Source of the DNA: an uncultured Acidimicrobiia bacterium | GTDB lineage: Bacteria; Actinomycetota; Acidimicrobiia; Acidimicrobiales; AC-14 | Length of the DNA: 64,000 nucleotides | Assembly: GCA_963790325.1 (NCBI GenBank) | Contig: CAWBNY010000004.1 | Location: forward strand, 4,210-68,209 | Reading direction: 5' to 3' | Shown: positions 1 to 40,008 of the stretch, piece after piece | How the letters are laid out: each line of letters starts with the position of its first letter | How positions within the stretch are numbered: the stretch's first letter is position 1 | The notes under the pieces: generated by a model | Told to the model about the DNA's origin: nothing | The model's database searches: none | Seen by the model: the letters and a program-made list of their open reading frames with translations, nothing else | Made by a program: the position numbers and the translations under genes

Positions 1-356
1 GTCGAACCGTTGACATCGAGCAGGCGGCACGGGTAGCGCGGGGCAGGACTGTTGCCCCCGGCGTGCGGGCGGTCATCGTGCCCGGTTCTCGGCGCGTCTC
101 CGACGAGGCGACACGACTCGGTTATCGAGCCACGCTTGAGGAGGCCGGGTTTGAGTGGCGGGAGCCGGGTTGCTCCTCGTGCGCAGCCGTGAACGGTGAC
201 ATCATCCCGCCACGGGAACGATGCATTTCCAGCACGAATCGTAACTTTGAGGGGCGCCAAGGGCCCGGTTCGATCACCCATCTCGCTAGCCCGGCCACGG
301 TGGCAGCGTCGGCCATTGTCGGACGCGTCGCCGATCCGCGGGATGTGGTGTCGTGA
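1..356 (+). CDS. aconitase-family (3-isopropylmalate dehydratase-type) large subunit, C-terminal part; 5' end outside window
   Basis: Frame 3 is open from the window edge. It contains GCSSCAAVNGD and the aconitase-family signature STNRNFEGRQG. Its stop overlaps the next start (GTGA). Confidence 0.85.
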   Translation, partial: RTVDIEQAARVARGRTVAPGVRAVIVPGSRRVSDEATRLGYRATLEEAGFEWREPGCSSCAAVNGDIIPPRERCISSTNRNFEGRQGPGSITHLASPATVAASAIVGRVADPRDVVS

Positions 357-922
357 AAACGATTGAGGGGACCGGTCTTCCATTGATGCGCGACTACGTC
401 GACACCGACATCATCGCACCAGCGACCGAGTTGCTCGTCGTAACATCCCAGGGGTTGGCTGAAATCGCCTTCAAGAACTGGCGCGTCCATGACGACGGGA
501 CTGCGCTCGACACGGTCTTCAACGACCGTAGGTATCTCTACTCAACGGTCCTTCTGGCAGGAGAGATGTTCGGCTGTGGATCGAGCCGTGAGCATGCGGT
601 CTGGGCGCTCAAGGCGTTCGGGATTCGCGTCATCGTTGCAAAAAGTTTCGGAGAGATCTTCCAGAGGAATGCGGCCAGAAACGGTATCGTTCCAGTGGTG
701 GTCTCTGACGCGACACTCCAGGCTCTTGCCGAGCGAACGCGAGTTTCCGTGCCGCCGGCCATCACTTTCCATCTCGACGCTCAGGCGGGGAGAGTAGGCG
801 ACCTCGAATTCTCCTTCGAGTTGACCGCCGAGACTGTTCGATTTGTCGTCGACGGCTACGACGAGATCGATGCAACCATGAAGCTGTTGGGACTCACAGA
901 TGAGTGCGCGATGCCAAGTTAG
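353..922 (+). CDS. aconitase-family small subunit (LeuD-like swivel domain)
   Basis: It has DTDIIAP and the FGCGSSREHAVWAL motif typical of LeuD/HacB small subunits. It is coupled to the upstream large subunit. Confidence 0.9.
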   Translation: MKTIEGTGLPLMRDYVDTDIIAPATELLVVTSQGLAEIAFKNWRVHDDGTALDTVFNDRRYLYSTVLLAGEMFGCGSSREHAVWALKAFGIRVIVAKSFGEIFQRNAARNGIVPVVVSDATLQALAERTRVSVPPAITFHLDAQAGRVGDLEFSFELTAETVRFVVDGYDEIDATMKLLGLTDECAMPS

Positions 923-965
923 TTAGGAATCAGCCAGTACCGGTCTCTCACCGTGGCCAACGGGT

Positions 966-986
966 CCGCTGATGAATCCTCAGCGG
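966..986 (+). terminator. weak hairpin downstream of the LeuD-like gene
   Basis: A 7-bp stem CCGCTGA/TCAGCGG flanks a 7-nt loop. There is no T-tract. It lies in the convergent intergenic region. Confidence 0.25.
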
Positions 987-1198
987 GAGCCTCACGGCAC
1001 CTCGCAAAGTACTGTGCAAAAACCACCCTCCATAACCAGGCTAAGCCACGCGTCGACCGGTGCGCCCTATCCCGGCCGCGGCGACAAGCGGCTCACGAGC
1101 AAGAGGTTCACGACCCGGTCCCCTGGTACCTGCACGCCCGCCAAGAAATCTTGCGAGCCTCAGCCGCCCCCTGAATAGTCACTTGAATCAACAAGATA

Positions 1199-1948
1199 CT
1201 AGTCCGTCTCGATCTTCAGGGTTTCGTGGTTGAAGTTGAGCTCGGGGAACGTCGGGTAGCGCTCCCGCATCACTTGATAGTAACGATCGACGCGCGGGTC
1301 GAGGGTCGGCAGGTACTTCTGCACCTCGATCCATGGAATGACTCCGTCTCGGCACAGGTAAGGGCGCCCGAGACTGCAATCGATTATCGTCGCCGCTTTG
1401 GTCGAGTAGGTGTCCAGCGCCTCGACTTGTGTCGGCCCCCCGTCGACGACGAGATCGACCCCAGAACCGATGTCGACGATGGCCTTCTCCAAAGAGACCC
1501 GGATCTGGCCTTGACCGGAGAGGTTCGCAGAGGTTGCGGCTACGGGACCAATGAACTTGGCTGAAACCAAGGACAAGCACTGGTCGTCGGCATGGGTGAC
1601 TGCAACAGTCATCAAACCGCAGGTCAGGCTTAGTGGGAAGTCAAGCTTCTGGGGAAAGATAAACCCGATCGGGCCGGGCAGCAAGTGTTCAAGAGCGTCG
1701 CCGGGGAACCATGCGGGGATGCGTACGTAGTCGGCGATCGCCTGGAGCGATGGAGCGACAACGGACAGGGGAGCTACACGATGGCGCTTCTTTACCTCAA
1801 ACACTCGCCGAATCGCCTCGGGATCGAGGGCGTCGCAGACCAGGACATAGTTGGTGATGGTCGGGCAGACCACAAGTCCCCCGCTACGAAGCACCTCGAC
1901 AGCAAGATCGATTCCGGCTTTGGTATTCTCTACAATCTTCGCCCCCAT
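1199..1948 (-). CDS. YrdC/Sua5-domain protein (threonylcarbamoyl-adenylate synthase-like adenylate-forming enzyme) with about 55-aa C-terminal tail
   Basis: Contains VKKRHRVAPLSVV and TSANLSGQ motifs of the YrdC/Sua5 fold. It is the last gene of the minus-strand operon. Confidence 0.8.
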   Translation of the reverse strand: MGAKIVENTKAGIDLAVEVLRSGGLVVCPTITNYVLVCDALDPEAIRRVFEVKKRHRVAPLSVVAPSLQAIADYVRIPAWFPGDALEHLLPGPIGFIFPQKLDFPLSLTCGLMTVAVTHADDQCLSLVSAKFIGPVAATSANLSGQGQIRVSLEKAIVDIGSGVDLVVDGGPTQVEALDTYSTKAATIIDCSLGRPYLCRDGVIPWIEVQKYLPTLDPRVDRYYQVMRERYPTFPELNFNHETLKIETD

Positions 1949-1951
1949 CGG

Positions 1952-3136
1952 TCACCCGCAGCGCTCGGGGTTTGCCATCAGTTGCGTGTGCAAGGACAGA
2001 AACAGCTCAGGATCGTTATACTGTGCTGGTCTGTTGCTGGCCTTGATCGCGCTGAAGACCTTGTCGACGAGTTCATCGGTGGGCGTCAGGTTGAGAGCCT
2101 CGAACTTGTCGACGACCAGTGTTCGACCCAGGCTGCCGTTGATGAGAAACTGCCAGTGCCGACCAAAAACTTCTGGCTCCACGAACTCGTAAGTGCTTCG
2201 GTCCTTCTTCATTCCATCAATGTGTATTCCGGCATAGCTCGCGAAAGCGTTGGCACCGAAGATCGGCTTGGAGCTCGATATCGGCAACTCCATTAGTTCG
2301 CGCATCCGTTCGAACACCGGTACCAGCTTGTCGAGGCGAATCCCGCACTGCTTGCCGTAGTACTTAGGCTTATAATGTAAGGCGCATGCGACCTCCTCAA
2401 TGGGCGCATTTCCGGCCCGTTCACCGATTCCACCGATGGTTCCCTGGAAGATGTCGGCGCCTGCCTTGATCGCCGCGAGTGAGTTTGCGGTAGCAAGGCC
2501 CATGTCGTTATGAACGTGGATTGCGAGCTTGGCCGCTCCGCCGACGAAGTCGCGGATCCGTGAGACGTACTCGGCACATTCCTCCGGGATGAAGGCACCG
2601 AGCGTGTCAGGAATAGCCAAGGTCGTGGCTCCCCGGGTGATACAGATCTCGATGCAGCGTTGAAGGAAGTCCAGCGAACCCCTGGACGCATCCTCGAATC
2701 CGGCCGTGATGTCTTGAATCCCGTATCTCTTGCACAGGTCGATCGCACGCTCCATCTCCTCGACGTAGGCGGCGAAGGTCATCTTCCGTTTCCGCTCAAG
2801 GTGGATCTCCGAACCAGTGAACATGAGCTGGACTTGGACGCCATCGGGGTTGACGATTGCGTCCGCCGTGCGCCGGAGATCTCTGTCGGTCGGGCGTGCT
2901 AGCATGCTCAACTTACAAGTGCGTTCCCGTGCAGTAAGCGTTTTGGTCAGTTCGAAATCGATCTCGGAGGCGGCTGGGAACCCGGTTTCGATATAGTCAA
3001 GCCCGGTATCTTCGAGCAGGTCGAACAGTTCAAGGCGCTCATCCAGACTCAGGCAAACCGGCTCGCCTTGGAGACCATCGCGAAGGGTCGTGTCGAAGAA
3101 CTCGACACGACCGAGTTGCGACGACATCGCGGTCAC
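1952..3136 (-). CDS. 2-isopropylmalate/homocitrate synthase family (HMGL-like aldolase)
   Basis: Contains FFDTTLRDGLQ, HVHNDMGLATANSLAAIKAGA and GIGERAGNAPIEEV motifs. Confidence 0.9.
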   Translation of the reverse strand: MTAMSSQLGRVEFFDTTLRDGLQGEPVCLSLDERLELFDLLEDTGLDYIETGFPAASEIDFELTKTLTARERTCKLSMLARPTDRDLRRTADAIVNPDGVQVQLMFTGSEIHLERKRKMTFAAYVEEMERAIDLCKRYGIQDITAGFEDASRGSLDFLQRCIEICITRGATTLAIPDTLGAFIPEECAEYVSRIRDFVGGAAKLAIHVHNDMGLATANSLAAIKAGADIFQGTIGGIGERAGNAPIEEVACALHYKPKYYGKQCGIRLDKLVPVFERMRELMELPISSSKPIFGANAFASYAGIHIDGMKKDRSTYEFVEPEVFGRHWQFLINGSLGRTLVVDKFEALNLTPTDELVDKVFSAIKASNRPAQYNDPELFLSLHTQLMANPERCG

Positions 3137-4236
3137 GCTTGGCCCACCGGGGCCTTGCGACCATCCAGATCGAGGGTCAGACCGTTGTCATACGGCCCAC
3201 GGACCACGACGTTCTCCACGTCGAACTGCATGAACATATAGCGACGCAGAATCGAATCCGGGATGACGTGGGACGAGTCAGTGAAGTCTCGTTGGAACGT
3301 CTGCTCGATGAAGCGGTTCCGCAACTCGTCGTCAGTTCGAAGGAGCTCGAGGAAAGCCTCGTTGTCCGACGATGAGCGGTCGCCGCTCACTCGCGGCAAT
3401 GCGTTGGTGTCAAGTAGAGAGAAGAGGTTCACCCCCTCATCGACGAGCACTCCATGAGTGTGGGAGGCGATGCGGAACACGTTGGTGGAGCGCTCCGTTG
3501 CTCGCGCTCCACCCTTTGCGCGGTCATGGGGATTCTCGAAGAACATCCGCTCAAGCAACTCGCGATCCCGCCAATCGGGGTCGTCCACGAGCACGCGTTG
3601 GGCGAATCCGACGACGACTCCCATACGTGGACCGTAGTTTCGGCCGGGGCGAGCGAAGTAGTCGATGTCCTGGAGGATGTTGCGGCCCTCAATCGGTGCG
3701 TGACGCAGAGAGGTCCCCCACCAGGCATCGAACTCACATATTCCAACGAACCCCACCAGCCGCTCCATCGGCGCGTTACCCAAGTCCGCTTCCACTCCAA
3801 TTCCGCCAGTGAACGAGATGAGCATATCCTGCATTGTCGGCTGGAGTTCCGCGTTGACGCGGAGTGTGTCCGAACCCCACCAGACTTTCCAGTCGTAGTC
3901 CGCGAGGCCAGACATTCCAATGCTATACGGAGCTACGTACTCGACTTCTGCGGGAGCTCGACCGTCGAGGAACCGCTGCTTGAGCCCGACTTTCGACACG
4001 GAGTCGCCGGCCCGTTCCAGTCCTTCAGCCGTTTGCTTCACGAAGAACCGGCCATCGACAAAGCACGAATCGGCGATATCGGCGACGTCGTCGGAAAATG
4101 AGCACACGCCCAGACCGAACCTCATTTGGCGATCGACGAAGTGATCCTTGTTGAGAAGCTTGGCGGGTTCGATGCACCCGTCGAAGACGCTCCTGATGTC
4201 ACCATAAAGATAAGCGGTGTTTCGTTGGGTTGTCAT
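3133..4236 (-). CDS. hypothetical protein (367 aa, no motif recognised)
   Basis: A long ORF with 4-nt overlaps to both neighbours and the same low-GC3 codon usage as the island. I could not recognise any family. Confidence 0.6.
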   Translation of the reverse strand: MTTQRNTAYLYGDIRSVFDGCIEPAKLLNKDHFVDRQMRFGLGVCSFSDDVADIADSCFVDGRFFVKQTAEGLERAGDSVSKVGLKQRFLDGRAPAEVEYVAPYSIGMSGLADYDWKVWWGSDTLRVNAELQPTMQDMLISFTGGIGVEADLGNAPMERLVGFVGICEFDAWWGTSLRHAPIEGRNILQDIDYFARPGRNYGPRMGVVVGFAQRVLVDDPDWRDRELLERMFFENPHDRAKGGARATERSTNVFRIASHTHGVLVDEGVNLFSLLDTNALPRVSGDRSSSDNEAFLELLRTDDELRNRFIEQTFQRDFTDSSHVIPDSILRRYMFMQFDVENVVVRGPYDNGLTLDLDGRKAPVGQA

Positions 4237-6227
4237 TCTCTTGCTCCTGCGAGTCGGCTAGTTCCGGCAAGAATTTCGCTCATTTGTTCCGCAGTCAGGC
4301 GTGGACGGCCGTTCATGGCCCGCACTGCGTTGAACCGCTCGACTCCCGGACCGAGTACCGTAGGATCGATCCGACAGTCGATAACAACCGGTTCATTGCG
4401 GTCGATCAACTCGTCTATGAACTTTTTAGTGATCATGCCGGGCTTCTCGACTACGACGCATCGTAGGCCCTGAGCCTGCGCGACCCGTTCGAGGTTGACC
4501 GGCCGCCGAAACGACAGTTCGTCAACTAAGAGCTGCTCGGAGACCGCGGCGAAACCCTGGTACACCGTCGAGAGCCGATAGTCGTTGAGGATGAAGATGA
4601 GCAACGAGCTTTCGATGTTTGAGGCCAGGCACGACAGCTCGTTGTTCATACTAACCGAACCGTCCCCGACGATACACACGGTCGGAGGAGCATCTGGACC
4701 TTCCATGTCCCGGGCTCCAAGGGTCACCCCAACCGAGGCCGCAACGGCATACCCCATCGTGTCGAAGCCACCGGGTTGGAACAGGCGCCAATCGCGCCGG
4801 AAGTGGATATAATGCGACGCGTAGAGCTTGCTTGTGCCGGTGTCGGCGACTATGTTCACTCTGGGTCGGTGGGCAAGGGCCTCGCTGAGTTCGAAGACAA
4901 CTCGCTGTCCGGTGAGTTTGGTGTCGTCACGCAAGGTCTCCTCGACCCGGTCGAGGTTGCACGGATGAAGATGGCGGAAGGTCTTTAGACGTTCCGACTG
5001 ATCGAGATGGGCGAAGCGGCGCCGGTCCTTGCGGATGACCTCAGTCAACGCAACCAGGAACGCGCGGATGTCTTGTCGACAGTACGTGCGGCGACGGCTT
5101 TCGACGCCCTTGGCCATGCCTCGACCGAAGACGTGTGGGTTTCGATCCACGTGCACGAGCTCTGGGCGCTTCAGCGCCTCGCTGAAGGAGTTGGTACCGT
5201 ATTCACCAAGCGAGGTACCCAGTGCCAGGACGAGGTCGACTGGCTCATCTTCCAGCCATTTCACTGGTCGTACATGAGGGAAGATACTGTGCTGTCCGAG
5301 AAACAGCGGCGAATCGTGGTCAGCGGCGGCGACACCCTTGGCGGTCGTGATGAGCGGAACCTGGAGCAAGTCTACGAGGGCCATCAACTCCTTCTCGGCA
5401 TTGGCCTGCGAGATTCCGTTGCCTGCGAACACAACCGGCCGTTTGGTTCTTTCCAGGAGCCGGGCCACCATGTGCGCATCTTGATCGAGGGATCCGGGCA
5501 TAGTTGTCGGTCCGGCGATCGAAAGGTCCGGCGCTGAAGTCTCGCTGCACCACCACGGCTGCTGCTTGAGGTTGATTCGAGCGCCCAGCACGTCGGTGCC
5601 GATGTGCAGATGGACCGGTCCGCGGCGTGGTTGATCGACATCGCCGACGAGGCACCGCGCTACTTCAGCGAAGCTCTCAAGGAAGTCGTCGGCGTTGCCG
5701 ACGTTCTTCTGACACACAGTGAGTCCGCGTATCACCTCAGCGATGTCACATTGGAAGCTCAGGGTGTCTTGCAACGCCCCGAGACGCTTTTTTGCTTCAG
5801 GGATCGTACCGTGCACCAAAAGCACAGCATCGTTATCCGAAGCGGCCTGCGCAAGCCCCGTCACAGCGTTCAGTGCAGCTGGGCCAGCTGTCGTCACGAC
5901 GACGCCGAACCGACGCGTAACCTGCGAATAACCCTGCGCCATGTAGGCCGCTCCGCCTTCGTGGGCGGACAGGACAAACTTTATTCCATCAGCATTGTGC
6001 GCAGCAGCCACGAAAGGGACAACATAGCCCCCTGGTATCCCGAAGACATGATGAACAGACTGAACCCTTAAGAAGTCTAACAGCGCGGTAGAAACCGTCG
6101 GCGATTCATCAGTCGATTGCACGATCACCGGGACCGTGGTCGTCCTCGCTTCGTCAATGTCCAGTTCCTGGGTCGGCATGTCGCGACTCCTCGTCACCGT
6201 TTCGACTTCCGTTCGTCGGAGGCTCAC
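4233..6227 (-). CDS. thiamine-diphosphate-dependent enzyme, acetolactate synthase large-subunit-like
   Basis: The N-terminal TPP-pyrimidine domain shows FGIPGG...HEGGAAYMAQGY...TAGPAALN, and the C-terminal TPP-binding motif is IVGDGSVSMNNELS. An alternative start lies at 6179 (MPTQEL). Confidence 0.9.
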   Translation of the reverse strand: MSLRRTEVETVTRSRDMPTQELDIDEARTTTVPVIVQSTDESPTVSTALLDFLRVQSVHHVFGIPGGYVVPFVAAAHNADGIKFVLSAHEGGAAYMAQGYSQVTRRFGVVVTTAGPAALNAVTGLAQAASDNDAVLLVHGTIPEAKKRLGALQDTLSFQCDIAEVIRGLTVCQKNVGNADDFLESFAEVARCLVGDVDQPRRGPVHLHIGTDVLGARINLKQQPWWCSETSAPDLSIAGPTTMPGSLDQDAHMVARLLERTKRPVVFAGNGISQANAEKELMALVDLLQVPLITTAKGVAAADHDSPLFLGQHSIFPHVRPVKWLEDEPVDLVLALGTSLGEYGTNSFSEALKRPELVHVDRNPHVFGRGMAKGVESRRRTYCRQDIRAFLVALTEVIRKDRRRFAHLDQSERLKTFRHLHPCNLDRVEETLRDDTKLTGQRVVFELSEALAHRPRVNIVADTGTSKLYASHYIHFRRDWRLFQPGGFDTMGYAVAASVGVTLGARDMEGPDAPPTVCIVGDGSVSMNNELSCLASNIESSLLIFILNDYRLSTVYQGFAAVSEQLLVDELSFRRPVNLERVAQAQGLRCVVVEKPGMITKKFIDELIDRNEPVVIDCRIDPTVLGPGVERFNAVRAMNGRPRLTAEQMSEILAGTSRLAGARE

Positions 6228-22198: not shown

Positions 22199-24832
22199 TC
22201 AGACGTCGTTGCGGCCGATGCAGACGAAGGCGGCGGCCGCCGCCCGGTCCTGACCGTCGCCGGCGCCGGCCAGGGCGAGGGCCGGGCGCTCCCCCGCCCG
22301 CAGCCGCCGGTGGAGGGCGACCATGACCGCGGTGGTGGCCACGTCGGGCACCGGCAGGAGGGGGGCGATCACGGCCCGGACGCCGAGCGATAGGAGGGCG
22401 GCGGCCGTGCCCAGGAGGTCGTCACCCTCGTGGACGGCGGCCACCGCCGCGTCGCAGGCCGAGAGCACCACCACCGACGGCGCCCGGCGGAGCCGCTCGA
22501 GGTCGTAGACGGTGAGCGGACCGTCGTGGAGGAGCACCGACGAGAAGAGGGGGCTGTCGGCCCGAAACGTCCCGTGGGCGGCCAGGTGGGCCAGATCGGC
22601 CTTCTCCAGCGCGGCCACGACACCGGCGACGGTCGCCCGCTCGCCGGTGAGCACGGTCGCCCTCGGGTAGAGGGCAGCCAGTTGACCGACCTCGGTCTCG
22701 GCCCCGGGCAGCCGGGGCCCCGCCACCAGCGCCACCCGCCGCCGCCCCCGGGAAGGCGCCGGCCGGGCCGGCCCGGCCGTCCCCGCCAGCCACACCGCGG
22801 CACTGGGAGCGACGGTGGTCGGGCGCCCCGCCAGGGTCGGCAGGGTCGACCACGGCAAACCGTGCAACTCGCCCGTGGGGACCACCACCACCGGCTGCCC
22901 GTTCGGCACGCCCAACGGAGCCAGCAAGAGCTCGTCGAGGCGGGCCGCGGTCGACGCCAGGGCCGACTCCGCCACCGCCCGCGATCCGGGCCAGAGCAGG
23001 CGCCGAAGGGCGAACATGAGGTACTGCCGCTCCCGCTCGACCTCCACCGCCGGGGCCAGGTCGTGGACCTTCACCCCTGCCCGGCGGACGGTGACGGCGT
23101 GCAGCCGCCCCTGCACCGACACGAACTCGACGAGGACGCGGTCACCCAACGCCCGCCGCAACGAGGCGACGTCGAGCCGGCCGGTGTCCGCCGCCCCGTC
23201 GTCACTCGCCCGCCGGGTGCGGTCCCGCACCCTCTCCTCCACCGCCGCCGCCTGCAGCGTCAGCGTCGGGGTCGGCCCGCCGTTGAGGGCGGCGTCCCGC
23301 AGCTCGGTCCGGATGCGGCGGAGCTGGGCCAGGTCGGCGGCCAGCTCGCCGTCGTCGGGCGGCCGCGCCGGCGGTCGCCGCAGCGCGCCCGCCCGCCCCC
23401 GCTCGACCCAGCGCAGGACCTCGGCCGGCCGCCCGCCGTCGAGGGCCAGGCGGACGCCGAGACGGGCCAGGTCGGCCGAGTGACCGGCCGCCCGGGCCCG
23501 CAGCTCCGACCCGCCGAGGGTCGCCCGGTACTCGTCGACGACGGTGATACCCCGGCCCAGGGCCCGCTTGGCGCCGGCTCGGTCGCCCTCGGCCAGGCGC
23601 AGCAGGGCGGTGGCGTGCCACGCCTGAGCCCGGCAGTCGGCGGATCCCACGGTGCGGGCGGACGCCGACTGGCCCAGCTCGGTGCGGGCGACGGCCGGCC
23701 GGCCCAGGGCCAGCGCCATCCGACCCACGAACGTGCGCACGTGGAGCGCCTCCACCGCCCACCCCTGGGACTCGAGCTCGGCCGCGATCCGCCGGCTGCG
23801 GCGGAGCAGGCCCGGTGGCGGAACCTCCTGGTCCTGGTGGGCCAGGACCGCGGCCTGGATCTCGACATACCGGGCCTGGGCCGACCACGGGAGGCGGCGG
23901 GCGGCCCGGAACTGGCGGGCGGCGAGGGCCGCCTCCGCCGCCGCCTGATCGTAGGCCCCCGCGGCCAGGAGGGACCGGGCCAGCAGGAGCCGGCACTCGT
24001 TGAGGTGGGTGAGGTCGCCCCGGGCCAGGGCGGCCACCGCCGACGCGGCTGCGGCCCGGGCCTCGCCCACCAGGCCTGCGGCCAGCAACACCTCGCTGCG
24101 GTCGGCGTCGAGCACCGCCACCAGCCGGTCCGGGTTGTCGAGGTCCTGGTAGGCCCGCTGGGCCCGGTCGAAGGCAGCCAGCGCCTCCGGCAACCTTCCC
24201 TGCCGGCAGTAGGCGAAGCCGGTGTTGTGGGCGGCCATGGCCACGATCATCGGGAGGTCCCGCTCCAAAGCGATCCGCTCCCCTTCGGCGAAGTCGGCGA
24301 GGGCGGCGTCGAGGTGGCCCTGGGCGCCGTGGAGGATGCCCCGGCACACCCGCAGCCGGGCGATCGACGCCTTGCTGCCCGTGCGGGCCAGGGAGCGGAG
24401 GGATCGTCCGTAGGCGGGCAGGGCCTGGTCGAGGTGGCCCGTCCAGTGGAGGACGACGCCGCCGAGGAGCTCCACCTCACCCCGCACCGACGTCGGAGCC
24501 ATCTCCCGGGCCCGCCCGATCTCCCGGGTGCTACCGGCGACGTCACCCACGCTGAGCAGGGAGATCGCCATGCTGGCCCGAGCCATCGCCTCCCGGTCGG
24601 GGAGGTTGTGCGCGACGCTGGTGGCCACGGCCGCCCGGTAGCGGCCGAGCGCCTCCCGGTGACGACCGAGCTCGTGGAGGGCCAGCCCGACGACCCACGA
24701 CGCGGCCGCGGAGACGCTCGGGGCGTCGGCGCCCTCGACCAGCTCGGTGGCCCGAGCCAGGACCGCAGCCGGGTCGCGATGGCGGCGATCGGCCAGCTCG
24801 GCCAGCTCGTCGAGGACCGCCCGCGACCCCAC
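22199..24832 (-). CDS. TPR-repeat protein with C-terminal CHAT (caspase-like) protease domain
   Basis: About 600 aa of TPR-like helical repeats precede a CHAT dyad context: DLAHLAAHGTF (His) and VVVLSACDAA (Cys). There is no signal peptide. Confidence 0.85.
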   Translation of the reverse strand: MGSRAVLDELAELADRRHRDPAAVLARATELVEGADAPSVSAAASWVVGLALHELGRHREALGRYRAAVATSVAHNLPDREAMARASMAISLLSVGDVAGSTREIGRAREMAPTSVRGEVELLGGVVLHWTGHLDQALPAYGRSLRSLARTGSKASIARLRVCRGILHGAQGHLDAALADFAEGERIALERDLPMIVAMAAHNTGFAYCRQGRLPEALAAFDRAQRAYQDLDNPDRLVAVLDADRSEVLLAAGLVGEARAAAASAVAALARGDLTHLNECRLLLARSLLAAGAYDQAAAEAALAARQFRAARRLPWSAQARYVEIQAAVLAHQDQEVPPPGLLRRSRRIAAELESQGWAVEALHVRTFVGRMALALGRPAVARTELGQSASARTVGSADCRAQAWHATALLRLAEGDRAGAKRALGRGITVVDEYRATLGGSELRARAAGHSADLARLGVRLALDGGRPAEVLRWVERGRAGALRRPPARPPDDGELAADLAQLRRIRTELRDAALNGGPTPTLTLQAAAVEERVRDRTRRASDDGAADTGRLDVASLRRALGDRVLVEFVSVQGRLHAVTVRRAGVKVHDLAPAVEVERERQYLMFALRRLLWPGSRAVAESALASTAARLDELLLAPLGVPNGQPVVVVPTGELHGLPWSTLPTLAGRPTTVAPSAAVWLAGTAGPARPAPSRGRRRVALVAGPRLPGAETEVGQLAALYPRATVLTGERATVAGVVAALEKADLAHLAAHGTFRADSPLFSSVLLHDGPLTVYDLERLRRAPSVVVLSACDAAVAAVHEGDDLLGTAAALLSLGVRAVIAPLLPVPDVATTAVMVALHRRLRAGERPALALAGAGDGQDRAAAAAFVCIGRNDV

Positions 24833-24881
24833 GGCTCGGAATGGTAGAGAGTCGTGTGTATCTCAGCGGCCCCTGCCGACT

Positions 24882-24895
24882 GTGAACGGTGAACG
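24882..24895 (+). promoter_or_regulatory. tandem GTGAACG GTGAACG in the CHAT/S8 divergent intergenic region
   Basis: A perfect 7-bp tandem repeat lies just upstream of the GAGGGAGG Shine-Dalgarno sequence of the S8 gene. Confidence 0.2.
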
Positions 24896-24908
24896 AGGGA
24901 GGCGGACA

Positions 24909-26438
24909 GTGACCGAGGGCGCAGCCGGACCGAGCGGCACCGGCAACGGCGACGACAGGGACGACGGCAACGACAAGGGCCACGGCGACGGCGACGGCGA
25001 CGGCGGCTACGGCGGCGAACCGGTCGTCGGCGACGGCCGGGAACGGCCCCGGGGACGATGGACGAACCGGGTGGGCTTCGCCGCCTGGCCCGGTGGCACT
25101 GTCTTCGCCTACCGGCCGGGCGAGATCCTCACCCTGCGGGGGGAGGATGCGCTGGCCACCACCCGGGAGCGAAACAACGACGTCCGGGTGCTCCAGGAGC
25201 TGGGCCAGTTCACCCGTCTCGGCGGCATCGCCGACGTCCTGGCCGAGGTCGGCGAGCTCCGCCGGCGGGGCATCCTCGCCCAACCCAACCACGTGTTCTT
25301 CGCCCACGACGGTGTCGGACCGACACCCGTGTTCCCGACACCCGTGTTCCCGACACCCGTGTTCCCGACCGGCGCCAACTGGGGCTGCAGGTGCTGCTCG
25401 CCGGGACCGTCGTGCCCGCCCCACCCCTCGAAGTCGTGCGCATGCGGTGGCGTTTTCCCCACCCCCGTCTTCCCCACCCCCGTCTTCCCCACCCCCGTGT
25501 TCCCGACGCCGGTGTTCCCGACGCCGGTGTTCCCGACGCCGGTGTTCCCCACCGAGATGAAGAGCACCGCCCGGGCGGTGCCGCCCGCCACCGACGTGTC
25601 CACCGCCACCGCCGCGCTGGCCGCGCCCATCCCCTCCGACGGGCCCCTCGTCATCGTGCTCGACACCGGCCTGGCCGCCGACGGACCGTACTTCCCGGCC
25701 GCCCTCACCTCGGCACCCGTGGCCGGCGCCACCTCCGCCGACCACGACGAGCCCGACGAGGACGGCGACGGCGGCCTCGATCCGTGTGCCGGCCACGGCA
25801 CGTTCATCGCCGGCGTCGTCGGCCAGGTCGCCCCCGGCTGCGAGGTCGTGATCCACCGGGTTTTCTCCACCTTCGCCGACTCGTCGGAGGCCGAGATCGT
25901 GGACGCCATCGCCAACCTCGACCCGGCCCGGCCCGATCGCACCATCCTCAACCTGTCCTTCGGCGGCTACACCCTCGACCTCCCTGTCGCCATGGCCATG
26001 GCCATCGCCGCCATCCAGGCCACGGGCGTCGTCGTGGTGGCATCGGCCGGAAACGACGCCACCTGCGTTCCCACCTACCCCGCCGCCTTCCCGGGCGTGG
26101 TCGCCGTGGGCGCGGTGGGCCCCACCGGCCCCGCCCCGTTCACCAACTACGGGCCGTGGGTCAGGGCGTGCGCGCCCGGCGTCGACATCGTGAGCACGTT
26201 CTTCCAGGGCTTCAACGGTTCCGAGCCGGTGCCGCCGGGTGGCGGCGGCGACCCCGACGATTTCTCCGGCTGGGCCCGGTGGAGCGGCACGTCGTTCTCC
26301 GCCCCCGTGGTCGCCGGCGCCCTGGCCCGGAGGATCCTGACCGACGGCTGCACCGCCGAGGAGGCGGTGTCGAGGGTGGTCGACGCCCCCGCCCTCATGC
26401 GGATCCCCAACCTGGGCACGGTGGTGAACGTCATCTGA
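24909..26438 (+). CDS. cytoplasmic subtilisin-like serine protease (S8) with I9-like propeptide and repeat/Cys-rich linker
   Basis: The catalytic residues are present: VIVLDTGLA (Asp), GHGTFIAG (His), ASAGND (Asn) and SGTSFSAP (Ser). I chose the GTG at 24909, which follows GAGGGAGG. The N-terminus is acidic with no hydrophobic signal. Confidence 0.85.
   Translation: MTEGAAGPSGTGNGDDRDDGNDKGHGDGDGDGGYGGEPVVGDGRERPRGRWTNRVGFAAWPGGTVFAYRPGEILTLRGEDALATTRERNNDVRVLQELGQFTRLGGIADVLAEVGELRRRGILAQPNHVFFAHDGVGPTPVFPTPVFPTPVFPTGANWGCRCCSPGPSCPPHPSKSCACGGVFPTPVFPTPVFPTPVFPTPVFPTPVFPTPVFPTEMKSTARAVPPATDVSTATAALAAPIPSDGPLVIVLDTGLAADGPYFPAALTSAPVAGATSADHDEPDEDGDGGLDPCAGHGTFIAGVVGQVAPGCEVVIHRVFSTFADSSEAEIVDAIANLDPARPDRTILNLSFGGYTLDLPVAMAMAIAAIQATGVVVVASAGNDATCVPTYPAAFPGVVAVGAVGPTGPAPFTNYGPWVRACAPGVDIVSTFFQGFNGSEPVPPGGGGDPDDFSGWARWSGTSFSAPVVAGALARRILTDGCTAEEAVSRVVDAPALMRIPNLGTVVNVI
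25320..25370 (+). repeat. 3 x 15-bp tandem repeat encoding PTPVF
   Basis: The unit ccgacacccgtgttc occurs three times, followed by a partial unit, in frame within the S8 CDS. Confidence 0.95.
25452..25553 (+). repeat. 6 x 15-bp tandem repeat encoding PTPVF (three nucleotide variants)
   Basis: The units are cccacccccgtcttc x2, cccacccccgtgttc x1 and ccgacgccggtgttc x3. All encode PTPVF. Confidence 0.95.
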
Positions 26439-26457
26439 ACGGTCCCGGGCCGGGAGC

Positions 26458-26481
26458 GGAACGCTCCTACGATGGCGCCGT
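26458..26481 (+). promoter_or_regulatory. ECF-type promoter-like motif GGAAC-N16-CGT
   Basis: GGAAC is at 26458-26462 and CGT at 26479-26481. The CGT overlaps the GTG that I assigned as the sigma factor start. Confidence 0.25.
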
Positions 26482-27076
26482 GTCGACATCCCGGGAGGAC
26501 TCGGTCGCCGACCTGGTGCTGGCGGCCAGGGCCGGCGACGCCGCCGCCTGGGACGCCCTCGTCGACCGCTTCGCCGGCCGGATCATGGCCGTCACCCGGT
26601 CCTTCCGCCTCGGGCGGGCCGACGCCGACGACGTCTTCCAGGTCACCTGGCTGCGCCTGGTCGCCAACCTCGAGAGCATCCGGGAACCCGATCGGGTCGG
26701 CGCCTGGCTGGTGACCACCGCGTCCCACGAGTGCCTGCGGCTGCTGCGCAAGGCCGGCCACCAGGCCCCGGGCGACGACGGCTGGGAGGACGGCCTGGTC
26801 GACGACGCGGCCGAGGTCGACGCGGGCGTGCTCACCACCGAGCGCGACCACGCCCTGTGGGCGGCGATGGGGATGCTTTCCGCCGCCTGCCAGCGACTCC
26901 TGCGGTTGCTGGCGGCCGACCCCGCCCCCACCTACGAAGAGGTCTCGGCGGCCCTGTCCATGCCGATCGGCAGCATCGGCCCCACCCGCCGCCGGTGCCT
27001 CGACCACCTCCGAACCCATTTCTCGCGTATCACCGGGACGCCCCAAGGCTCATCTGAGTTGGGGGAGATGCCATGA
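26480..27076 (+). CDS. ECF-family RNA polymerase sigma factor
   Basis: Region 2 shows AGDAAAWDALVDRF...DADDVFQVTWLRL, and the region 4 HTH shows YEEVSAALSMPIGSIGPTRRRCLDHLR. An alternative start is the GTG at 26516. Confidence 0.85.
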   Translation: MSTSREDSVADLVLAARAGDAAAWDALVDRFAGRIMAVTRSFRLGRADADDVFQVTWLRLVANLESIREPDRVGAWLVTTASHECLRLLRKAGHQAPGDDGWEDGLVDDAAEVDAGVLTTERDHALWAAMGMLSAACQRLLRLLAADPAPTYEEVSAALSMPIGSIGPTRRRCLDHLRTHFSRITGTPQGSSELGEMP

Positions 27077-27558
27077 CTGATCACGAAGACCGAGACGACC
27101 GAGACGACGACCTCCTGGAGGAGCTGCGAGCGATGCTGGGCCGCGTCGATCCGGTCCCGGTGGAGATGGTCGCCGCCGCCCGCGCCACCTTCATCTGGCA
27201 CACGATCGACGCCGAGCTGGCCCAGCTCACCTGCGATTCGGTCCTCGACACCGATCGCATGGCCGGCGTCCGCGGCGGGAGCACGGCGGTCGGGCCCCAG
27301 CTGCTCACCTTTTCGGCCGAAGGCCTGACGGTGGAGATCGAGGCCACCACCGGGCCGGGCGGGCTGCGCCTGCTCGGCCAGCTGGTCCCGCCCCAGCCGG
27401 GCCAGGTCGAGGTCTGCCACCCGGGGGGCACCACCACCGTCGACGTCGACGCCCTGGGCCGCTTCGCGGCCGACGGTCTGGCCCCGGGCCCGGTGAGCCT
27501 GCGCTGCCGCCCCGCGCAGGGCGGCCCCGCCGTCGGCACCGACTGGTTTCTCGCCTAG
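27073..27558 (+). CDS. sigma-coupled soluble protein (putative anti-sigma/partner), no TM segment and no zinc-finger motif
   Basis: It overlaps the sigma gene stop (ATGA). It has an acidic N-terminus (DHEDRDDRDDD) and a predicted beta-rich C-terminal half. No HxxxCxxC motif is present. Confidence 0.6.
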   Translation: MTDHEDRDDRDDDLLEELRAMLGRVDPVPVEMVAAARATFIWHTIDAELAQLTCDSVLDTDRMAGVRGGSTAVGPQLLTFSAEGLTVEIEATTGPGGLRLLGQLVPPQPGQVEVCHPGGTTTVDVDALGRFAADGLAPGPVSLRCRPAQGGPAVGTDWFLA

Positions 27559-27615
27559 GACGTATCAGGGAGCCCCGTCGGCGGCTCTCAGTGGTGAGCG
27601 ACCGAGGGAGGCGAG

Positions 27616-27831
27616 ATGGACTCGATCACGCAGAGCGACACCTGCTACCTGCTGCTGACCGGCGGGCGGGGCTCACCCCAGAGCCTGATGTTCCGGACCG
27701 AGGAGCAGGCGCAGGCCGAGTTCCGCAGGATCAGCCGGGCCCCCCGGGCGGGGACCCAGTGGATGGAGCTGTCGATGGTGGTCGGCGGCGGCCGCCTCCA
27801 CCGGCTGGCCTCCTACGCCCGACCCTCGTAG
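27616..27831 (+). CDS. small hypothetical protein (71 aa)
   Basis: The ATG is preceded by GAGGGAGGCGAG. No family was recognised. Confidence 0.5.
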   Translation: MDSITQSDTCYLLLTGGRGSPQSLMFRTEEQAQAEFRRISRAPRAGTQWMELSMVVGGGRLHRLASYARPS

Positions 27832-27919: not shown

Positions 27920-28807
27920 ATGGACCAACGGCTCGTGACACCCCAGATCCGCACCCTCTTCTGGGGCGTGGGCTGCGCCTTCTCCGGCCTGGCGGGACTG
28001 GTGCTGTTCCTCTTCCCGGAGAAGACCGACACCCTCTTCGCCTGGACGATCGCCCGGGGCGACACCGCCGCCTTCCTCGGTGCCTGCTTCCTCGGGATCA
28101 GCCTTCTCTCGTTCCTCTGCTACGGCATCACCGAGTGGCGGGGGGTCCGGTTCTGCTTCCTGGGGACGCTGGCCTTCGTCACCGCCATGACGGTGGCCAC
28201 CCTCCTCCACCTCGACCAGTTCCACTTCGGCAGCGACGAGCCCATCGCCCTGGTCACGGCCTTCGGGTGGACCATCGTCTACCTGGCCGCGCCGGTGGCC
28301 GGTTGGCTGCTGCTGTCCCGCCAGCTGCGGGAGCCGGGGTCCGACCACCGCCCGGCGACCCCCATCGTCCCCGGCCTGCGCTATCTCTACCTGGCCCAGG
28401 GCGGGCTGCTGGTGGCGGTCGGGGTCGTGCTGTTCGTGTCCCCCGGGTCGGCCGACAGCGTGTGGCCATGGCCCCTCACCCCGTTGACCGCCCGGGCGGT
28501 GGGGTCGTTCCTCATCGGATTCGGGATCATGCTCGTCGGCGTCGGTCGGGAGGACGCGACCGAGATCCTGGAGCCACCCGGCGCCGCCTGCTGGTGGACG
28601 GCGCTGCTGTCGGGGATGGCCGCCACCCGGTTCCAGGGGACTGTCGACGTCGGCTCCATCCGAGGTCTGCTGTGGTGCCTGGTGGTCGTGAGCCTCCTCC
28701 TCGGGGGCGTCGCCGGCGAGCTGGCCGCCCGCCGCCTGCGGGCCGGCCCCCGTCCACCCGGCGCACCCCGCCCGCCCCGTCCCCCACGACGACCGATCGA
28801 GGGCTAG
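27920..28807 (+). CDS. polytopic membrane protein with internal duplication and Pro/Arg-rich tail
   Basis: There are about 8 hydrophobic segments. The halves begin FPEKTDTLFAWTIARGDTAAFLG and SPGSADSVWPWPLTPLTARAVGSFLIG. Confidence 0.7.
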   Translation: MDQRLVTPQIRTLFWGVGCAFSGLAGLVLFLFPEKTDTLFAWTIARGDTAAFLGACFLGISLLSFLCYGITEWRGVRFCFLGTLAFVTAMTVATLLHLDQFHFGSDEPIALVTAFGWTIVYLAAPVAGWLLLSRQLREPGSDHRPATPIVPGLRYLYLAQGGLLVAVGVVLFVSPGSADSVWPWPLTPLTARAVGSFLIGFGIMLVGVGREDATEILEPPGAACWWTALLSGMAATRFQGTVDVGSIRGLLWCLVVVSLLLGGVAGELAARRLRAGPRPPGAPRPPRPPRRPIEG

Positions 28808-36813: not shown

Positions 36814-39800
36814 TCAGGCCCGGAGGGGGCCCGTGAGGCGGCCGTGGGTGGCGAACCGGGAGCGGATGTCGCGGGGCAGGGACGCGGCGATCGTCTGCAG
36901 GGCGTCGCGGGCCTGGCGGCCGGGGGCGACCTCGGCCAGCAGCAGGGCCGAACCGGTGGGCACGGCCACCGCCGCCGCCTCCTCCCGATGTCCCAGCCGG
37001 GCCAGGGCCAGGGCCTGGTACTTGGCCGACCCCCGCTGCCGGGCCAGCTCGAGCAACAGCTCCGCCCGCGCCGGCTCCAACCGGCTCCCGACCTCGATCA
37101 GCCGCAGCTCGGCCCGCCAGCGGAACGGCAGCCACACCCGGATCAGCGGCTCCGCCTCCGCCACCAGCGCCGCCGCCGCCCCCTCGTCCCCCTCCATCAG
37201 CCGGCACTCGGCCGCCGCCAGCAGGGCGTGCAGCTCCTGTTCGGTCTGCAGCGACCCCGCCGCCACCTCCCGGGACTGCTCGATCGCCTCGCGGGCCAGA
37301 TCCTCCGCCCGGGCCACGTCCCCCAGCTCCCGCCACACCCACGAGAGCGTGGTCGACGTCCGGGCCCGGTAGAAGTGCACGTCGTAGCGGTTGAGCAGGC
37401 CCCGCTTGCGCTCGAGCACCCGCAGCGCCCCCGCCAGGTCGCCCAGGTTGGCCCGGGCCAGGCCGGCGAAGAACAGCGTCCGCAGCAGCGCCCGGAACGA
37501 TCCCGTCTCCTCGCAGGTGGCCATCGACCGGGCCAGCACGTCCCGGGCCTCGGCGAAGCGGTCCCCGTGTTCCAGCAGCGCTCCCAGACAGCTCAACGCG
37601 GACGCCACCGTGGACGGATCCGACTCCCCGTCGGTCATGGCCTGCTCGTAGGCGGCCGACGCCCCCGCCATGTCGCCCGCCCAGTGGCGTACCCGTCCCA
37701 CCAGCACCAACGCGCTCGCCTGGGCCCCCGGCGCGGCCGCCGCGGCCTCGGCCAGCGCCGTCGCCTGCACCGCGAAGTCGGCGGCCCGGTCGACGTCGCG
37801 CCCGTAATAGGCGGTCCACCCCAGCCGCTCCAGGGCCATCGCCTCCAAGGCCGAGTCGCCCGAGGCCCGGGCCAACGCCAGGGCCCGCTGGTGGTCGTCC
37901 CGGGCGCCGGCGTACTCGGCCAGCTCCTCCCGCACCTGCCCCCGCCGCAGCGACACCCGGCCCTCGGCGGCCGAATCCCCGGCGGCCGACGCCGCCGCCA
38001 CCGCCCGCCCGAACAGCCGCTCCGCATCCCGGTTGGCGAAGCGCCGGCGGGCGTCGGCCGCGGCTGCCGTCCACGCTTCGCACGCCCGCCGCCAGTCCCC
38101 CGCCGCCTCCCGGTGGACGGCCACCAGCTCGTGACGGTCGGCCACCAGCTCCGCGATCCGCCGGTGCCGGCTGGCCCGCACCGCCGGCGCCGTCGTCTCG
38201 TACAGAACGTCCTGGATGACGCTGTTGGCGAACGCCAGGTCGCCCGCCTTGGTCACCAGCAGCCCCGCCTCCAGCGCCCGTTGGGCCAGGCGGGCGGCGA
38301 CCTCCGACGCCACCTCCTGGACCCGCGCCACCAGGTCGAGGTCGAACGACGCCCCCGCCACCACCCCCACCCGGAGGAACTCCTCCACGTCACCGCCCGC
38401 CCGCCGGACCCGCTCCGTCACCACGTCCCGCAGCGACCGGCTGACCTCCAGGGCGTCGGCCGCCCGGTCGGAGTCGGCCGCCAGGCGGAACGCCTCCACC
38501 GAGAAGAGCACGTCGCCGCCGGTGAGCTCGTACACGGGAGCCGCCAGCTCGGGCACCCCCATGGCGGCCGCCAGCTGCTCCACCGCCGCCACCGGGAGGG
38601 GGCCGAGGTGGATCTCCCGGCCCAGGTGCTCGAGCGTCTCCATCGCCTCCCGGGCCTCCTCGGGACGCAGCGTCACCACCACGAGCATCCGCGCCTGGGA
38701 CAGGCGGCCGGCCATGAACCGCAACGCCTCGAGGGTGGAGGCGCCGGCATGCTCCAGGTCGTCCAGGACCAGCAACACCGGGTGCCGTTGGGCCAGGCGG
38801 GCGAAGAGCTCGGTCACCGCCTCCAGCGACCGCCGGTGCTCCAACTCCGGACCGGCTCGCTCGTAGGCGGACGTCGCCCCCGCCAGCCCCGACGCCACCG
38901 GGAGGCCGGGCAGCAGCTCCCGCAACGTCCCCGCCCAGCTGCCGACCAGCTCCGCCGCCACCTCGGCCGAAACCCCCTCCAGGTACTTCCGGACCGACTC
39001 CACGATGGGCTGGAGGAACAGCGACCGCTCGGCCTCGTTGCACCGGGCTCGCAATGTGACGCCGCCCGCCGCCTCCGCCACCGCCGCCGCCTCCAACGCC
39101 AGCCGGGACTTGCCCGACCCCGCGGGACCGCACACGAACACGAACGCGCTCCGCCCCGCGACCGCCGCCGCCCATGCCTCCCGCAGCAGGTACAGCTCCT
39201 GGCGCCGGCCCACCAGCGGCACCGCCCGGGCGGCGGGACCACCACGGATGCCGGCGCCCGACGCCCCCCGCAGCTCGGGCTCCGGACCGCCCCCGGCGAT
39301 GGCCTCGAACAGCACGAGGGTCTCGTCGGCCGGGGCCACGCCCAGTTCGTCGTGCAGCTCCCGCTCCAGCCGCTTGAACACCACCAGGGCCGCCCCCCGG
39401 TCCCCCCGCCGGTGGTTGGCCCGCATGAGGGCCCGGTGGGCGTCCTCGTCGAAGGAGTCGGCGTCGACCGCGGCGGTGGCCGCCTCCAGGGCGGTGGCGG
39501 TGTCGCCCAGCTCCAGAGCCGCCGCCCACACGCACGCCCGGGCCCGCCGTTGCAGGCGCGCCACCCGCCGCCGCGGCCCCTGGGCCCACGGCGCGTAGGG
39601 CTCGTCCTCCAGCAGCTCGCCCGCGTCGAGGACGGCCAGCGCCCGCCGCCCGGCCGTCGCCGCCGGCCCGAACGCTCCCGCCCCCAGCCGGGACTCGGCC
39701 TCCGCCACCAGCCCCTCGGCCTCGTGGAAATCGGTCTCGAGGTCGGCCCGGTAGCCCGACCGGCCGCCTTGGATGCGGTCGCGGCCGACCAGCCGCCGCA

Positions 39801-40008
39801 GCCGGCTGACCAGTGACGCCACGTTCTGCTCGGCCTTGGCCGGTGCGCCGTCGGGCCACAGATCGTCGATGATGCGGTCGGTGGGGACGAGGTGGCCGGA
39901 CTCCACCGCCAGCATCCCCAGCAGGCTCGACGCCCGCCCCGCCGGCAGCTCGGCGACCCGCGCCCCGTCGACGAACAGGCGCAGCGGTCCCACCAGCCGG
40001 ACCCGCAC
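36814..40008 (-). CDS. SARP/AfsR-like regulator: winged-helix + BTAD + P-loop NTPase + TPR
   Basis: The N-terminus VRVRLVGPLRL is followed by a BTAD region (HRALMRANHRRGDRGAAL..F..L...L..ELGV.P), a P-loop (GPAGSGKS) and a long TPR-like C-terminus. The ORF track allows a start up to 40221. Confidence 0.85.
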   Translation of the reverse strand: MRVRLVGPLRLFVDGARVAELPAGRASSLLGMLAVESGHLVPTDRIIDDLWPDGAPAKAEQNVASLVSRLRRLVGRDRIQGGRSGYRADLETDFHEAEGLVAEAESRLGAGAFGPAATAGRRALAVLDAGELLEDEPYAPWAQGPRRRVARLQRRARACVWAAALELGDTATALEAATAAVDADSFDEDAHRALMRANHRRGDRGAALVVFKRLERELHDELGVAPADETLVLFEAIAGGGPEPELRGASGAGIRGGPAARAVPLVGRRQELYLLREAWAAAVAGRSAFVFVCGPAGSGKSRLALEAAAVAEAAGGVTLRARCNEAERSLFLQPIVESVRKYLEGVSAEVAAELVGSWAGTLRELLPGLPVASGLAGATSAYERAGPELEHRRSLEAVTELFARLAQRHPVLLVLDDLEHAGASTLEALRFMAGRLSQARMLVVVTLRPEEAREAMETLEHLGREIHLGPLPVAAVEQLAAAMGVPELAAPVYELTGGDVLFSVEAFRLAADSDRAADALEVSRSLRDVVTERVRRAGGDVEEFLRVGVVAGASFDLDLVARVQEVASEVAARLAQRALEAGLLVTKAGDLAFANSVIQDVLYETTAPAVRASRHRRIAELVADRHELVAVHREAAGDWRRACEAWTAAAADARRRFANRDAERLFGRAVAAASAAGDSAAEGRVSLRRGQVREELAEYAGARDDHQRALALARASGDSALEAMALERLGWTAYYGRDVDRAADFAVQATALAEAAAAAPGAQASALVLVGRVRHWAGDMAGASAAYEQAMTDGESDPSTVASALSCLGALLEHGDRFAEARDVLARSMATCEETGSFRALLRTLFFAGLARANLGDLAGALRVLERKRGLLNRYDVHFYRARTSTTLSWVWRELGDVARAEDLAREAIEQSREVAAGSLQTEQELHALLAAAECRLMEGDEGAAAALVAEAEPLIRVWLPFRWRAELRLIEVGSRLEPARAELLLELARQRGSAKYQALALARLGHREEAAAVAVPTGSALLLAEVAPGRQARDALQTIAASLPRDIRSRFATHGRLTGPLRA

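Follow-up and report, generated by a model that had tools for sequence, protein, structure and literature searches.

Can a caspase-like protease gate an alternative sigma factor in bacteria without CRISPR? The question is raised by a group of genes in a 64,000-nucleotide stretch of contig CAWBNY010000004.1 from an uncultured Acidimicrobiia bacterium (the window, below, means this whole stretch). A TPR-CHAT protease, an S8 (subtilase) protease, a sigma factor of the extracytoplasmic function (ECF) type and a soluble acidic protein of 161 aa, here called the partner, are encoded there side by side. An earlier reading of the DNA (the original prediction) proposed that they form a stand-alone module in which CHAT and/or S8 proteolysis releases the sigma factor. 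We found that the four genes are a genuinely co-conserved module, kept together far beyond chance, and that by gene context the module matches the ECF54 type. We consider it probable that proteolysis controls the sigma/partner pair.

Genes in the window were called with guidance from the GC content at third codon positions (GC3), alongside a list of open reading frames (ORFs). The ORF list, Pfam and NCBIfam bore out the five originally predicted genes (these four and a 71-aa gene) with their coordinates, intact catalytic residues and overlap of sigma and partner. The Pfam scan covered most called genes at 383-49511 and 58221-61364. Outside it lay the stretch from 49.6 to 58 kb, one called gene (61999-62586) and several ORFs that were short or scored low. 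The TPR-CHAT gene (22199-24832, minus strand) encodes 877 aa with matches to Pfam CHAT (E=7e-36) and TPR_12/TPR_MalT. It is separated by a divergent spacer of 76 nt (24833-24908) from the S8 gene (24909-26438, plus strand; 509 aa; Peptidase_S8, E=1e-23), for which GC3 placed the start at the GTG at 24909, behind GGGAGG; the first start of the listed ORF is at 24747. The sigma gene follows on the same strand (~26480-27076, GTG start approximate) within a long ORF at 25058-27076, and encodes ~198 aa with sigma2 and sigma4 regions only (Sigma70_r2, 4.5e-13). The partner gene (27073-27558, plus strand) begins with an ATG that overlaps the sigma TGA as ATGA. At the level of the sequence, this overlap shows the two genes to be translationally coupled.

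To describe conservation we used 80 related loci from species-representative genomes, anchored on the partner family and labelled L001 onward. They were sampled from Acidimicrobiia, Thermoleophilia and Actinomycetes (Streptosporangium, Nonomuraea, Catenulispora, Acidothermus and Thermopolyspora), and the phylum, where named, was Actinomycetota for all of them. All-against-all clustering of the called genes of these loci plus the window (81 loci) gave four recurrent families: partner (75 loci), sigma (63), CHAT (56) and S8 (55). The next family occurred in 12. Gene presence was then scored by tblastn in the 52 well-flanked loci, defined as those flanked by 6 kb or more on each side. A lack of co-conservation had been named beforehand as refuting the original prediction; the prediction passed this test, with all four genes present in 39 of the 52. 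Five more had sigma and CHAT, with S8 just under threshold in sister strains, and CHAT was found in 44/52 altogether.

The order of the four genes varied. We found at least six arrangements, including that of the window (CHAT< S8> Sig> P>, where Sig is sigma, P is the partner and the arrowheads give the strand), S8< CHAT> Sig> P>, S8> Sig> P> CHAT>, S8> CHAT> Sig> P>, Sig> P> S8< CHAT> and S8< Sig> P> CHAT>. Sigma was directly upstream of the partner in every locus where both were called, and 24 pairs shared the 4-nt ATGA overlap. The pairwise distance matrices of the four proteins were correlated (r=0.84-0.93). Two metagenome-assembled genomes carried two copies of the module or of the partner (L008 and L014 in one, L033 and L054 in the other).

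The module is accompanied by a promoter-like motif. Bipartite k-mer enumeration over upstream regions showed enrichment of GTATC...CTCT ahead of S8. The consensus of 66 unique sites is (T/G)GTATCA-N16-G(G/A)CTCT, with 17 or 18 nt between GTATC and CTC. A simple form of the pattern had 146 matches in the 80 loci, compared to ~40 in shuffles. In 54 of the 81 loci a site lay no more than 270 nt ahead of S8, sigma or the partner; for CHAT this was so in 1 of 57 cases. We also scored upstream regions with a position weight matrix (PWM), taking as cut-off the 95th percentile of 871 control genes (score 6.4). By this measure the motif preceded 55% of S8 genes, 39.5% of partner genes and 27% of sigma genes, compared to 5.1% of control genes and 1.8% (1/55) of CHAT genes.

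All strong sites in the window lie inside the module, and there are three, each on the plus strand. GTATC-N15-GACTGT (24858-24883; PWM score 16.6) is 51 nt before the S8 GTG and has GACTGT as its -10 element; in L005-L007, the nearest relatives, the equivalent position reads GTATCA...GACTCT. GTATCA-N15-GGCTCA (27027-27052; PWM 20.3) lies in the 3' end of sigma, 46 nt before the partner ATG. GTATCA-N16-GGCTCT (27562-27588; PWM 24.3) is 54 nt before the 71-aa gene. The region upstream of CHAT scored -6.5. The sites upstream of the partner generally fall in the final ~50 nt of sigma. Their placement relative to the reading frame varied among 17 loci, with two codon phases, sites spanning the stop codon and sites in the intergenic spacer, so the internal motif is conserved as DNA and not as peptide; the two phases and the sites across stop codons led us to reject a conserved C-terminal peptide of sigma as its source. 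Two loci with a partner gene alone (L038 and L069) have a GTATCA...GCTCC motif ~220 nt upstream. Other genes preceded by the motif in relatives (FtsH-like, LuxR/LAL regulators, a PEP-utilising enzyme and others) were heterogeneous, and we took them as chance matches.

By analogy to the general behavior of ECF sigma factors, we infer that the motif is an autoregulated promoter of the module's own sigma. Because the motif precedes S8 and hardly ever CHAT, S8 is more likely to be downstream of sigma, as an output or amplifier, than to be the gate. CHAT is a plausible gate, adjacent to the module and apparently outside its regulon. Thus, of the two proteases originally offered as the gate, CHAT keeps that role as a plausible candidate, and S8 (55% compared to 1/55 for CHAT) is more likely an output.

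The partner belongs to a family without a described function. We found 476 homologues, all labelled hypothetical and all from Actinomycetota. A profile search returned 3,610 representative clusters; the best 150 were almost all 140-215 aa long and included no fusions. The window protein had no match in Pfam, NCBIfam or PADLOC at E<=0.01. By hydropathy and sequence it appears to be soluble, as originally predicted, with no signal peptide, no transmembrane helix (maximum KD19 hydropathy 0.88) and no HxxxCxxC zinc anti-sigma motif. The public annotation starts the protein 20 codons later (141 aa). We favor the 161-aa form (start at 27073) because the invariant L18 and the near-invariant R19 precede the 141-aa start.

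The AlphaFold2 (AF2) model of the partner (mean predicted local distance difference test score (pLDDT) 83) has three parts. Two helices are predicted at aa 7-25 and 30-63, and the second carries a near-invariant (W)RTIDAELAxL..DS. They are followed by a low-confidence, presumably disordered linker at aa 63-71 with the near-invariant V66-R67-G68, and by a confidently predicted seven-stranded beta-sandwich at aa 76-147. Conservation is strongest in helix 2 and at V66-R67-G68. The beta-sandwich gave weak CarboxypepD_reg matches in 14 of 22 family members, which would account for the "carboxypeptidase" label used in the literature. Against the PDB (E<=10), the sequence profile found only an irrelevant coiled coil, and a fold search found only generic beta-sandwiches. 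Overall, the protein looks like a soluble partner of sigma whose translation is coupled to it.

In the sigma protein, TIGR02937 (sigma70-ECF) spans aa 33-189, above its cut-off, and hydropathy indicated neither a signal peptide nor a transmembrane helix. The tails and the linker between sigma2 and sigma4 are poorly conserved. Two cysteines in region 4, C137 (nt ~26888, in CQRLLRLL) and C173 (nt ~26996, in RRCL), are kept in at least 90% of the family. Such a conserved pair is unusual for ECF sigmas and could confer redox or metal sensitivity.

The S8 protein looks like a cytoplasmic pro-enzyme. D252, H296, N382 and S462 are invariant in 47/47 homologues. The window protein has no N-terminal hydrophobic segment by hydropathy, in agreement with the lack of a signal peptide that had been claimed for it, and a signal peptide was missing in 46 of the 47 homologues (the exception is a second, unrelated-looking subtilase in L063). 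In the AF2 model (pLDDT 79, predicted TM-score 0.80), a disordered Gly/Asp-rich N-terminus (aa 1-48) precedes a confident prodomain-like alpha/beta domain (aa 50-131, nt 25056-25301) that packs on the catalytic domain and ends in QPNHVFF. F131, at its end, is invariant in the alignment of homologues. The catalytic domain (aa 220-509) is a standard subtilisin core. Foldseek matches of the model were subtilisins. Since the longest alignments were to unprocessed pro-subtilisin E and PCSK9, the N-terminal domain fits an I9-like inhibitory prodomain. S8 also matched a PADLOC subtilase model, over the catalytic core only.

Prodomain and catalytic domain of S8 are joined by a predicted disordered Pro/Cys-rich linker of ~80 residues (aa 135-215, nt 25311-25553). 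It holds perfect PTPVF tandem repeats, three and then about six (DNA period 15 nt), around a Cys-rich patch (GCRCCSPGPSCPPHPSKSCACGG). Relatives, including L009 and L057, have other repeat units at this position (INPAS x9, NPTYLG x7), and about a quarter of S8 homologues have PVY "extensin-like" repeats. An HCxCCPPHPAxxCG motif in the linker is common to the close clade and could bind metal. A degenerate (CGGCGA)n repeat at the 5' end of the gene (24941-25037) codes for part of the Gly/Asp-rich tail (GNGDDRDDGNDKGHGDGDGDGG).

TPR-CHAT consists of a TPR/MalT-like superhelix (~aa 1-600) and a CHAT caspase-like domain (aa 628-857). The catalytic His753 and Cys793 are kept in 43 of 44 homologues, and the last one is gapped there. 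Hydropathy gave no indication of a signal peptide or a transmembrane helix. Judged by these features, CHAT and S8 both look active and cytoplasmic. The single CHAT sequence had no PDB match at E<=0.01, and 8rot_B (5e-7) was the sole CHAT protein among the 60 matches listed for the family profile. PADLOC matched aa 764-844 to profile positions 523-599 of 720 of BovA (E=4.5e-9); this covers the catalytic core only and is not a full-length match to BovA, the single-gene model of Borvo. In one species with two assemblies (L001 and L002), CHAT is three ORFs (136, 279 and 283 aa) in one long-read assembly and an intact 933-aa gene in the other. The three-way split is probably due to assembly frameshifts rather than pseudogenisation.

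A gene neighborhood of this kind is already in the literature. ECF54 is described with subtilase, CHAT and carboxypeptidase-domain proteins in its context, and proteolytic control has been proposed (PMC8999054, citing Huang et al. 2015 and Casas-Pastor et al. 2021). The same review lists ECF54 under "Proteolysis", names SFT86700.1 of Geodermatophilus amargosae as model protein, and knows no experimentally characterised member. Casas-Pastor et al. 2021 describe the group as actinobacterial, with neither a putative anti-sigma factor nor a clear regulator. The module in the window shares with it an ECF sigma of sigma2 and sigma4 only, the actinobacterial spread, the subtilase, CHAT and carboxypeptidase(-regulatory-like) neighbors, and the lack of a zinc or membrane anti-sigma factor, as the partner has no HxxxCxxC, no transmembrane helix and no anti-sigma match in Pfam or NCBIfam. 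Geodermatophilus was not among the best 120 matches of a sigma search seeded with Catenulispora. The gene set of the proposed stand-alone protease-sigma module is real and a candidate switch, and it is not a new kind, its context having been published (PMC8999054). What is new relative to the ECF54 literature that we examined is the promoter motif and its near-absence from CHAT, together with the putative internal promoter of the partner and the predicted architectures of partner and S8. Quantified co-conservation and the asymmetry between the two proteases are likewise added here.

Several better-known systems resemble the module. In Craspase, CASP-sigma is bound and inhibited by Csx30. The TPR-CHAT protease Csx29 cuts a flexible loop of Csx30 and so lifts the inhibition, and sigma binding motifs occur within the locus itself (PMC10028731). 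As in the window, a TPR-CHAT protein with a His/Cys dyad stands beside an ECF-type sigma and a soluble partner; the analogy drawn in the original prediction is legitimate in the sense of "works like". The window differs in having an additional S8 pro-protease and no Csx31, and no cas domain was found in its scanned genes; the signal cannot be target RNA bound to Cas7-11. The 161-aa partner was unrelated to the 565-aa Csx30 in the PDB profile search, for which the presence of Csx30 chains in the PDB copy is unconfirmed. The sigma family profile, whose best PDB match was E. coli RpoE (1.7e-16), was no closer to 9n9q_C (9e-6), a chain deposited as "RpoE" whose identity with the Craspase sigma is unconfirmed.

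In a type III-B system, the soluble protease CalpL cleaves the putative anti-sigma factor CalpT and releases a sigma-containing subcomplex, and SAVED-CHAT switches on a second protease, PCaspase, with PCc-sigma encoded in the same locus (bioRxiv 10.1101/2023.06.23.546230). The trigger of those systems is cyclic oligoadenylate, which acts through SAVED domains. In contrast, the window has a TPR array, and its second protease is a subtilase rather than a caspase or Lon. DdvA-DdvS of Myxococcus xanthus is an anti-sigma system with a TPR-CHAT module that controls an ECF sigma; DdvA is a transmembrane zinc anti-sigma factor with a periplasmic CHAT domain of incomplete active site, and RseP-type intramembrane proteolysis is invoked (PMC11506125). 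In the window, all components are predicted to be cytoplasmic, CHAT has an intact dyad, and a separate small protein is the candidate anti-sigma factor. In the classical route, exemplified by DegS, RseP and ClpXP acting on RseA, or by RsiW, the anti-sigma factor is destroyed and an autoregulated ECF sigma is released. The window differs from this route as well, in having no membrane step and no site-1 or site-2 protease, and the partner is unlike class I anti-sigma domains. With no cas gene in the scanned regions, no relation of the partner to Csx30 in the profile search and no close solved relative of CHAT, membership in the Craspase, CalpL, SAVED-CHAT or DdvA systems is excluded. The absence of a gasdermin gene, like that of cas genes, had been claimed for the whole window. 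It holds for the Pfam-scanned genes; related loci had no extra recurrent family that could be a bacterial gasdermin.

These observations can be assembled into a scheme. The partner would be a soluble anti-sigma factor that grips the ECF sigma with its pair of conserved N-terminal helices. TPR-CHAT would be made independently of sigma and be present beforehand, and a signal received on the TPR superhelix would activate its caspase-like domain. CHAT would then cut the partner, most plausibly at the near-invariant V-R-G in the disordered linker. The freed sigma would transcribe from GTATCA-N16-GGCTCT promoters, and its targets would include the S8-sigma-partner operon, the partner itself, the 71-aa gene of this clade (p71) and perhaps a 295-aa gene (p295) next to it. 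The internal promoter in the 3' end of sigma would supply fresh anti-sigma factor and thereby negative feedback or a reset. Induced S8 would stay latent through its I9-like prodomain until processed after Phe131 and freed of the prodomain, possibly by CHAT, and the processed enzyme would act as an executioner or amplifier protease. For the whole of this scheme, with CHAT-gated cleavage of the partner freeing sigma and S8 being induced, we put the chances slightly below even. A more far-reaching version is rather doubtful: the partner family would be a new class of soluble anti-sigma factors cut by CHAT at the linker Arg, sigma would induce a latent pro-subtilase, and the whole would be a CRISPR-independent two-tier cell-fate circuit (death, dormancy or development) across Actinomycetota.

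A number of findings weigh against the scheme. The partner had no detectable similarity to known anti-sigma domains, by sequence profile or by fold. The -35 element of the motif (GTATCA) is unlike the common GGAAC, and what links the motif to this sigma is the logic of autoregulation. CHAT was no more than 60 nt downstream of a same-strand partner or S8 gene in 3 of 57 loci, where it would be co-transcribed. In 5 of the 52 well-flanked loci (~10%; L027-L030 and L039), sigma and partner occurred with no protease within 10 kb, which suggests that the proteases are not always needed in cis; three loci (L014, L038 and L069) had the partner alone, as a paralogue away from sigma and the proteases. 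As to ECF54, the 4Fe-4S protein that Casas-Pastor et al. 2021 report as a frequent neighbor, though not a defining trait, was not seen among the scanned flanking genes or as a fifth recurrent family in the 80 loci. Those authors also warn against reading context genes as regulators, since they may instead be targets.

This caution points to an alternative in which both proteases are outputs. The partner would be an anti-sigma factor that answers another cue, such as a ligand on its beta-sandwich, and sigma would switch on a proteolytic program. The putative sigma-dependent promoter on S8 in most loci is consistent with this, and the confinement of the strong sites to the module suggests that the module's own genes are the main output. 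However, the motif is rarer in front of CHAT (1/55 to 1/57) than in front of control genes (5%), and even when CHAT immediately precedes sigma on the same strand the motif sits between the two. A gene that is kept with the module and yet stays outside its regulon is better explained as an input, and we regard this alternative as unlikely. It is also conceivable that the proteases degrade sigma itself, as ClpXP does with AntA, and that the partner is an adaptor, protector or chaperone; S8 induced by sigma could then provide negative feedback. The near-invariant Arg is in the disordered linker of the partner, however, and the linker and tails of sigma are poorly conserved. The strict order of sigma then partner, with the ATGA overlap, is also the classic layout of a sigma/anti-sigma pair. 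Degradation of sigma thus seems to us very unlikely.

A role in anti-phage defense or abortive infection, with CHAT sensing infection and the induced subtilase killing or arresting the cell, would be compatible with the scheme of CHAT-gated sigma release. Craspase, CalpL-CalpT-CalpS, SAVED-CHAT/PCaspase and DdvA-DdvS are precedents, and PADLOC returned the weak BovA match for CHAT and a subtilase match for S8. Those matches comprise catalytic domains only, however, and the scanned flanks are metabolic, with no defense or mobile-element genes. A plasmid search had a sole match, an unannotated Nonomuraea chromosome filed as a plasmid, and hence no true plasmid match. In addition, divergence of the four proteins runs in parallel across Acidimicrobiia, Actinomycetes and Thermoleophilia, a pattern that resembles long co-inheritance more than island hopping. 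We therefore think a defense function quite unlikely. The last alternative is that the genes are neighbors by chance or local synteny and have no functional link. Some neighbors are indeed incidental: the 71-aa gene, the 295-aa gene and the MDMPI genes downstream are kept in the closest relatives only, by plain synteny. The four core genes, in contrast, have stayed together through at least six rearrangements and in three classes of Actinomycetota, with all flanking families changing, and a chance association can be set aside with near certainty.

The module bears on two wider points. For ECF54, as for some other groups, Casas-Pastor et al. found no link to a canonical regulator, and the vague idea of "proteolysis" can now be replaced by parts: a candidate anti-sigma factor, a candidate cut at V66-R67-G68, a motif with three sites, and CHAT as putative input with S8 as putative induced pro-enzyme. 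The existence of CRISPR-linked proteases that free sigma factors (Csx29, CalpL) makes a widespread CRISPR-free TPR-CHAT/sigma module more interesting, as caspase-like control of transcription could be ordinary bacterial signaling and not only a defense oddity. If the scheme is true, the module would offer an orthogonal protease-gated sigma switch for synthetic biology.

Downstream of the partner, the 71-aa soluble protein p71 (27616-27831, plus strand) has a strong Shine-Dalgarno sequence (GAGGGAGG). That it is a real gene, as originally predicted, is supported by its conservation in the closest relatives; its place in the conserved set did not hold up, as homologues are confined to this clade (5 loci including the window). 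Each is behind a promoter motif (L005, L006, L007 and L009, besides the window), and p71 is probably a local member of the regulon outside the conserved core. The following gene, p295 (27920-28807, plus strand; 295 aa), is conserved in L005-L009-type relatives only. No promoter motif precedes it directly (PWM -10.3), and it is possibly co-transcribed with p71. Its translation reads by eye as hydrophobic, and it is likely a polytopic membrane protein. Neither p71 nor p295 had a match in Pfam, NCBIfam or PADLOC.

The scanned flanking genes encode AllG/AllH, lyases, a pyridoxal phosphate (PLP) enzyme, ComA, nitrile hydratase, DsrE, an ATP-binding cassette (ABC) exporter, a two-component system, an MMPL transporter and a SARP/STAND regulator, with no defense island or mobile element among them. 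Rfam had no match in the whole window. The SARP/AfsR-like STAND regulator (58221-61364, minus strand; 1047 aa; Trans_reg_C, BTAD, AAA_16/NACHT and TPR) is apparently unrelated to the module. A stand-alone TPR protein of 380 aa (36814-37956, minus strand) and a 567-aa ORF with a weak coding signal and no Pfam match (38113-39816, plus strand) are not conserved with the module. The window has a GC content of ~74% apart from its first 6 kb: positions 1-6000 are 59-60% GC, compared to 70-78% in the rest. This segment encodes a C-terminal fragment of aconitase and then, on the minus strand, a Sua5/YrdC-like protein, a homocitrate-synthase-like HMGL enzyme, a protein without a Pfam match and a thiamine pyrophosphate (TPP) enzyme, and it may be a horizontally acquired block.

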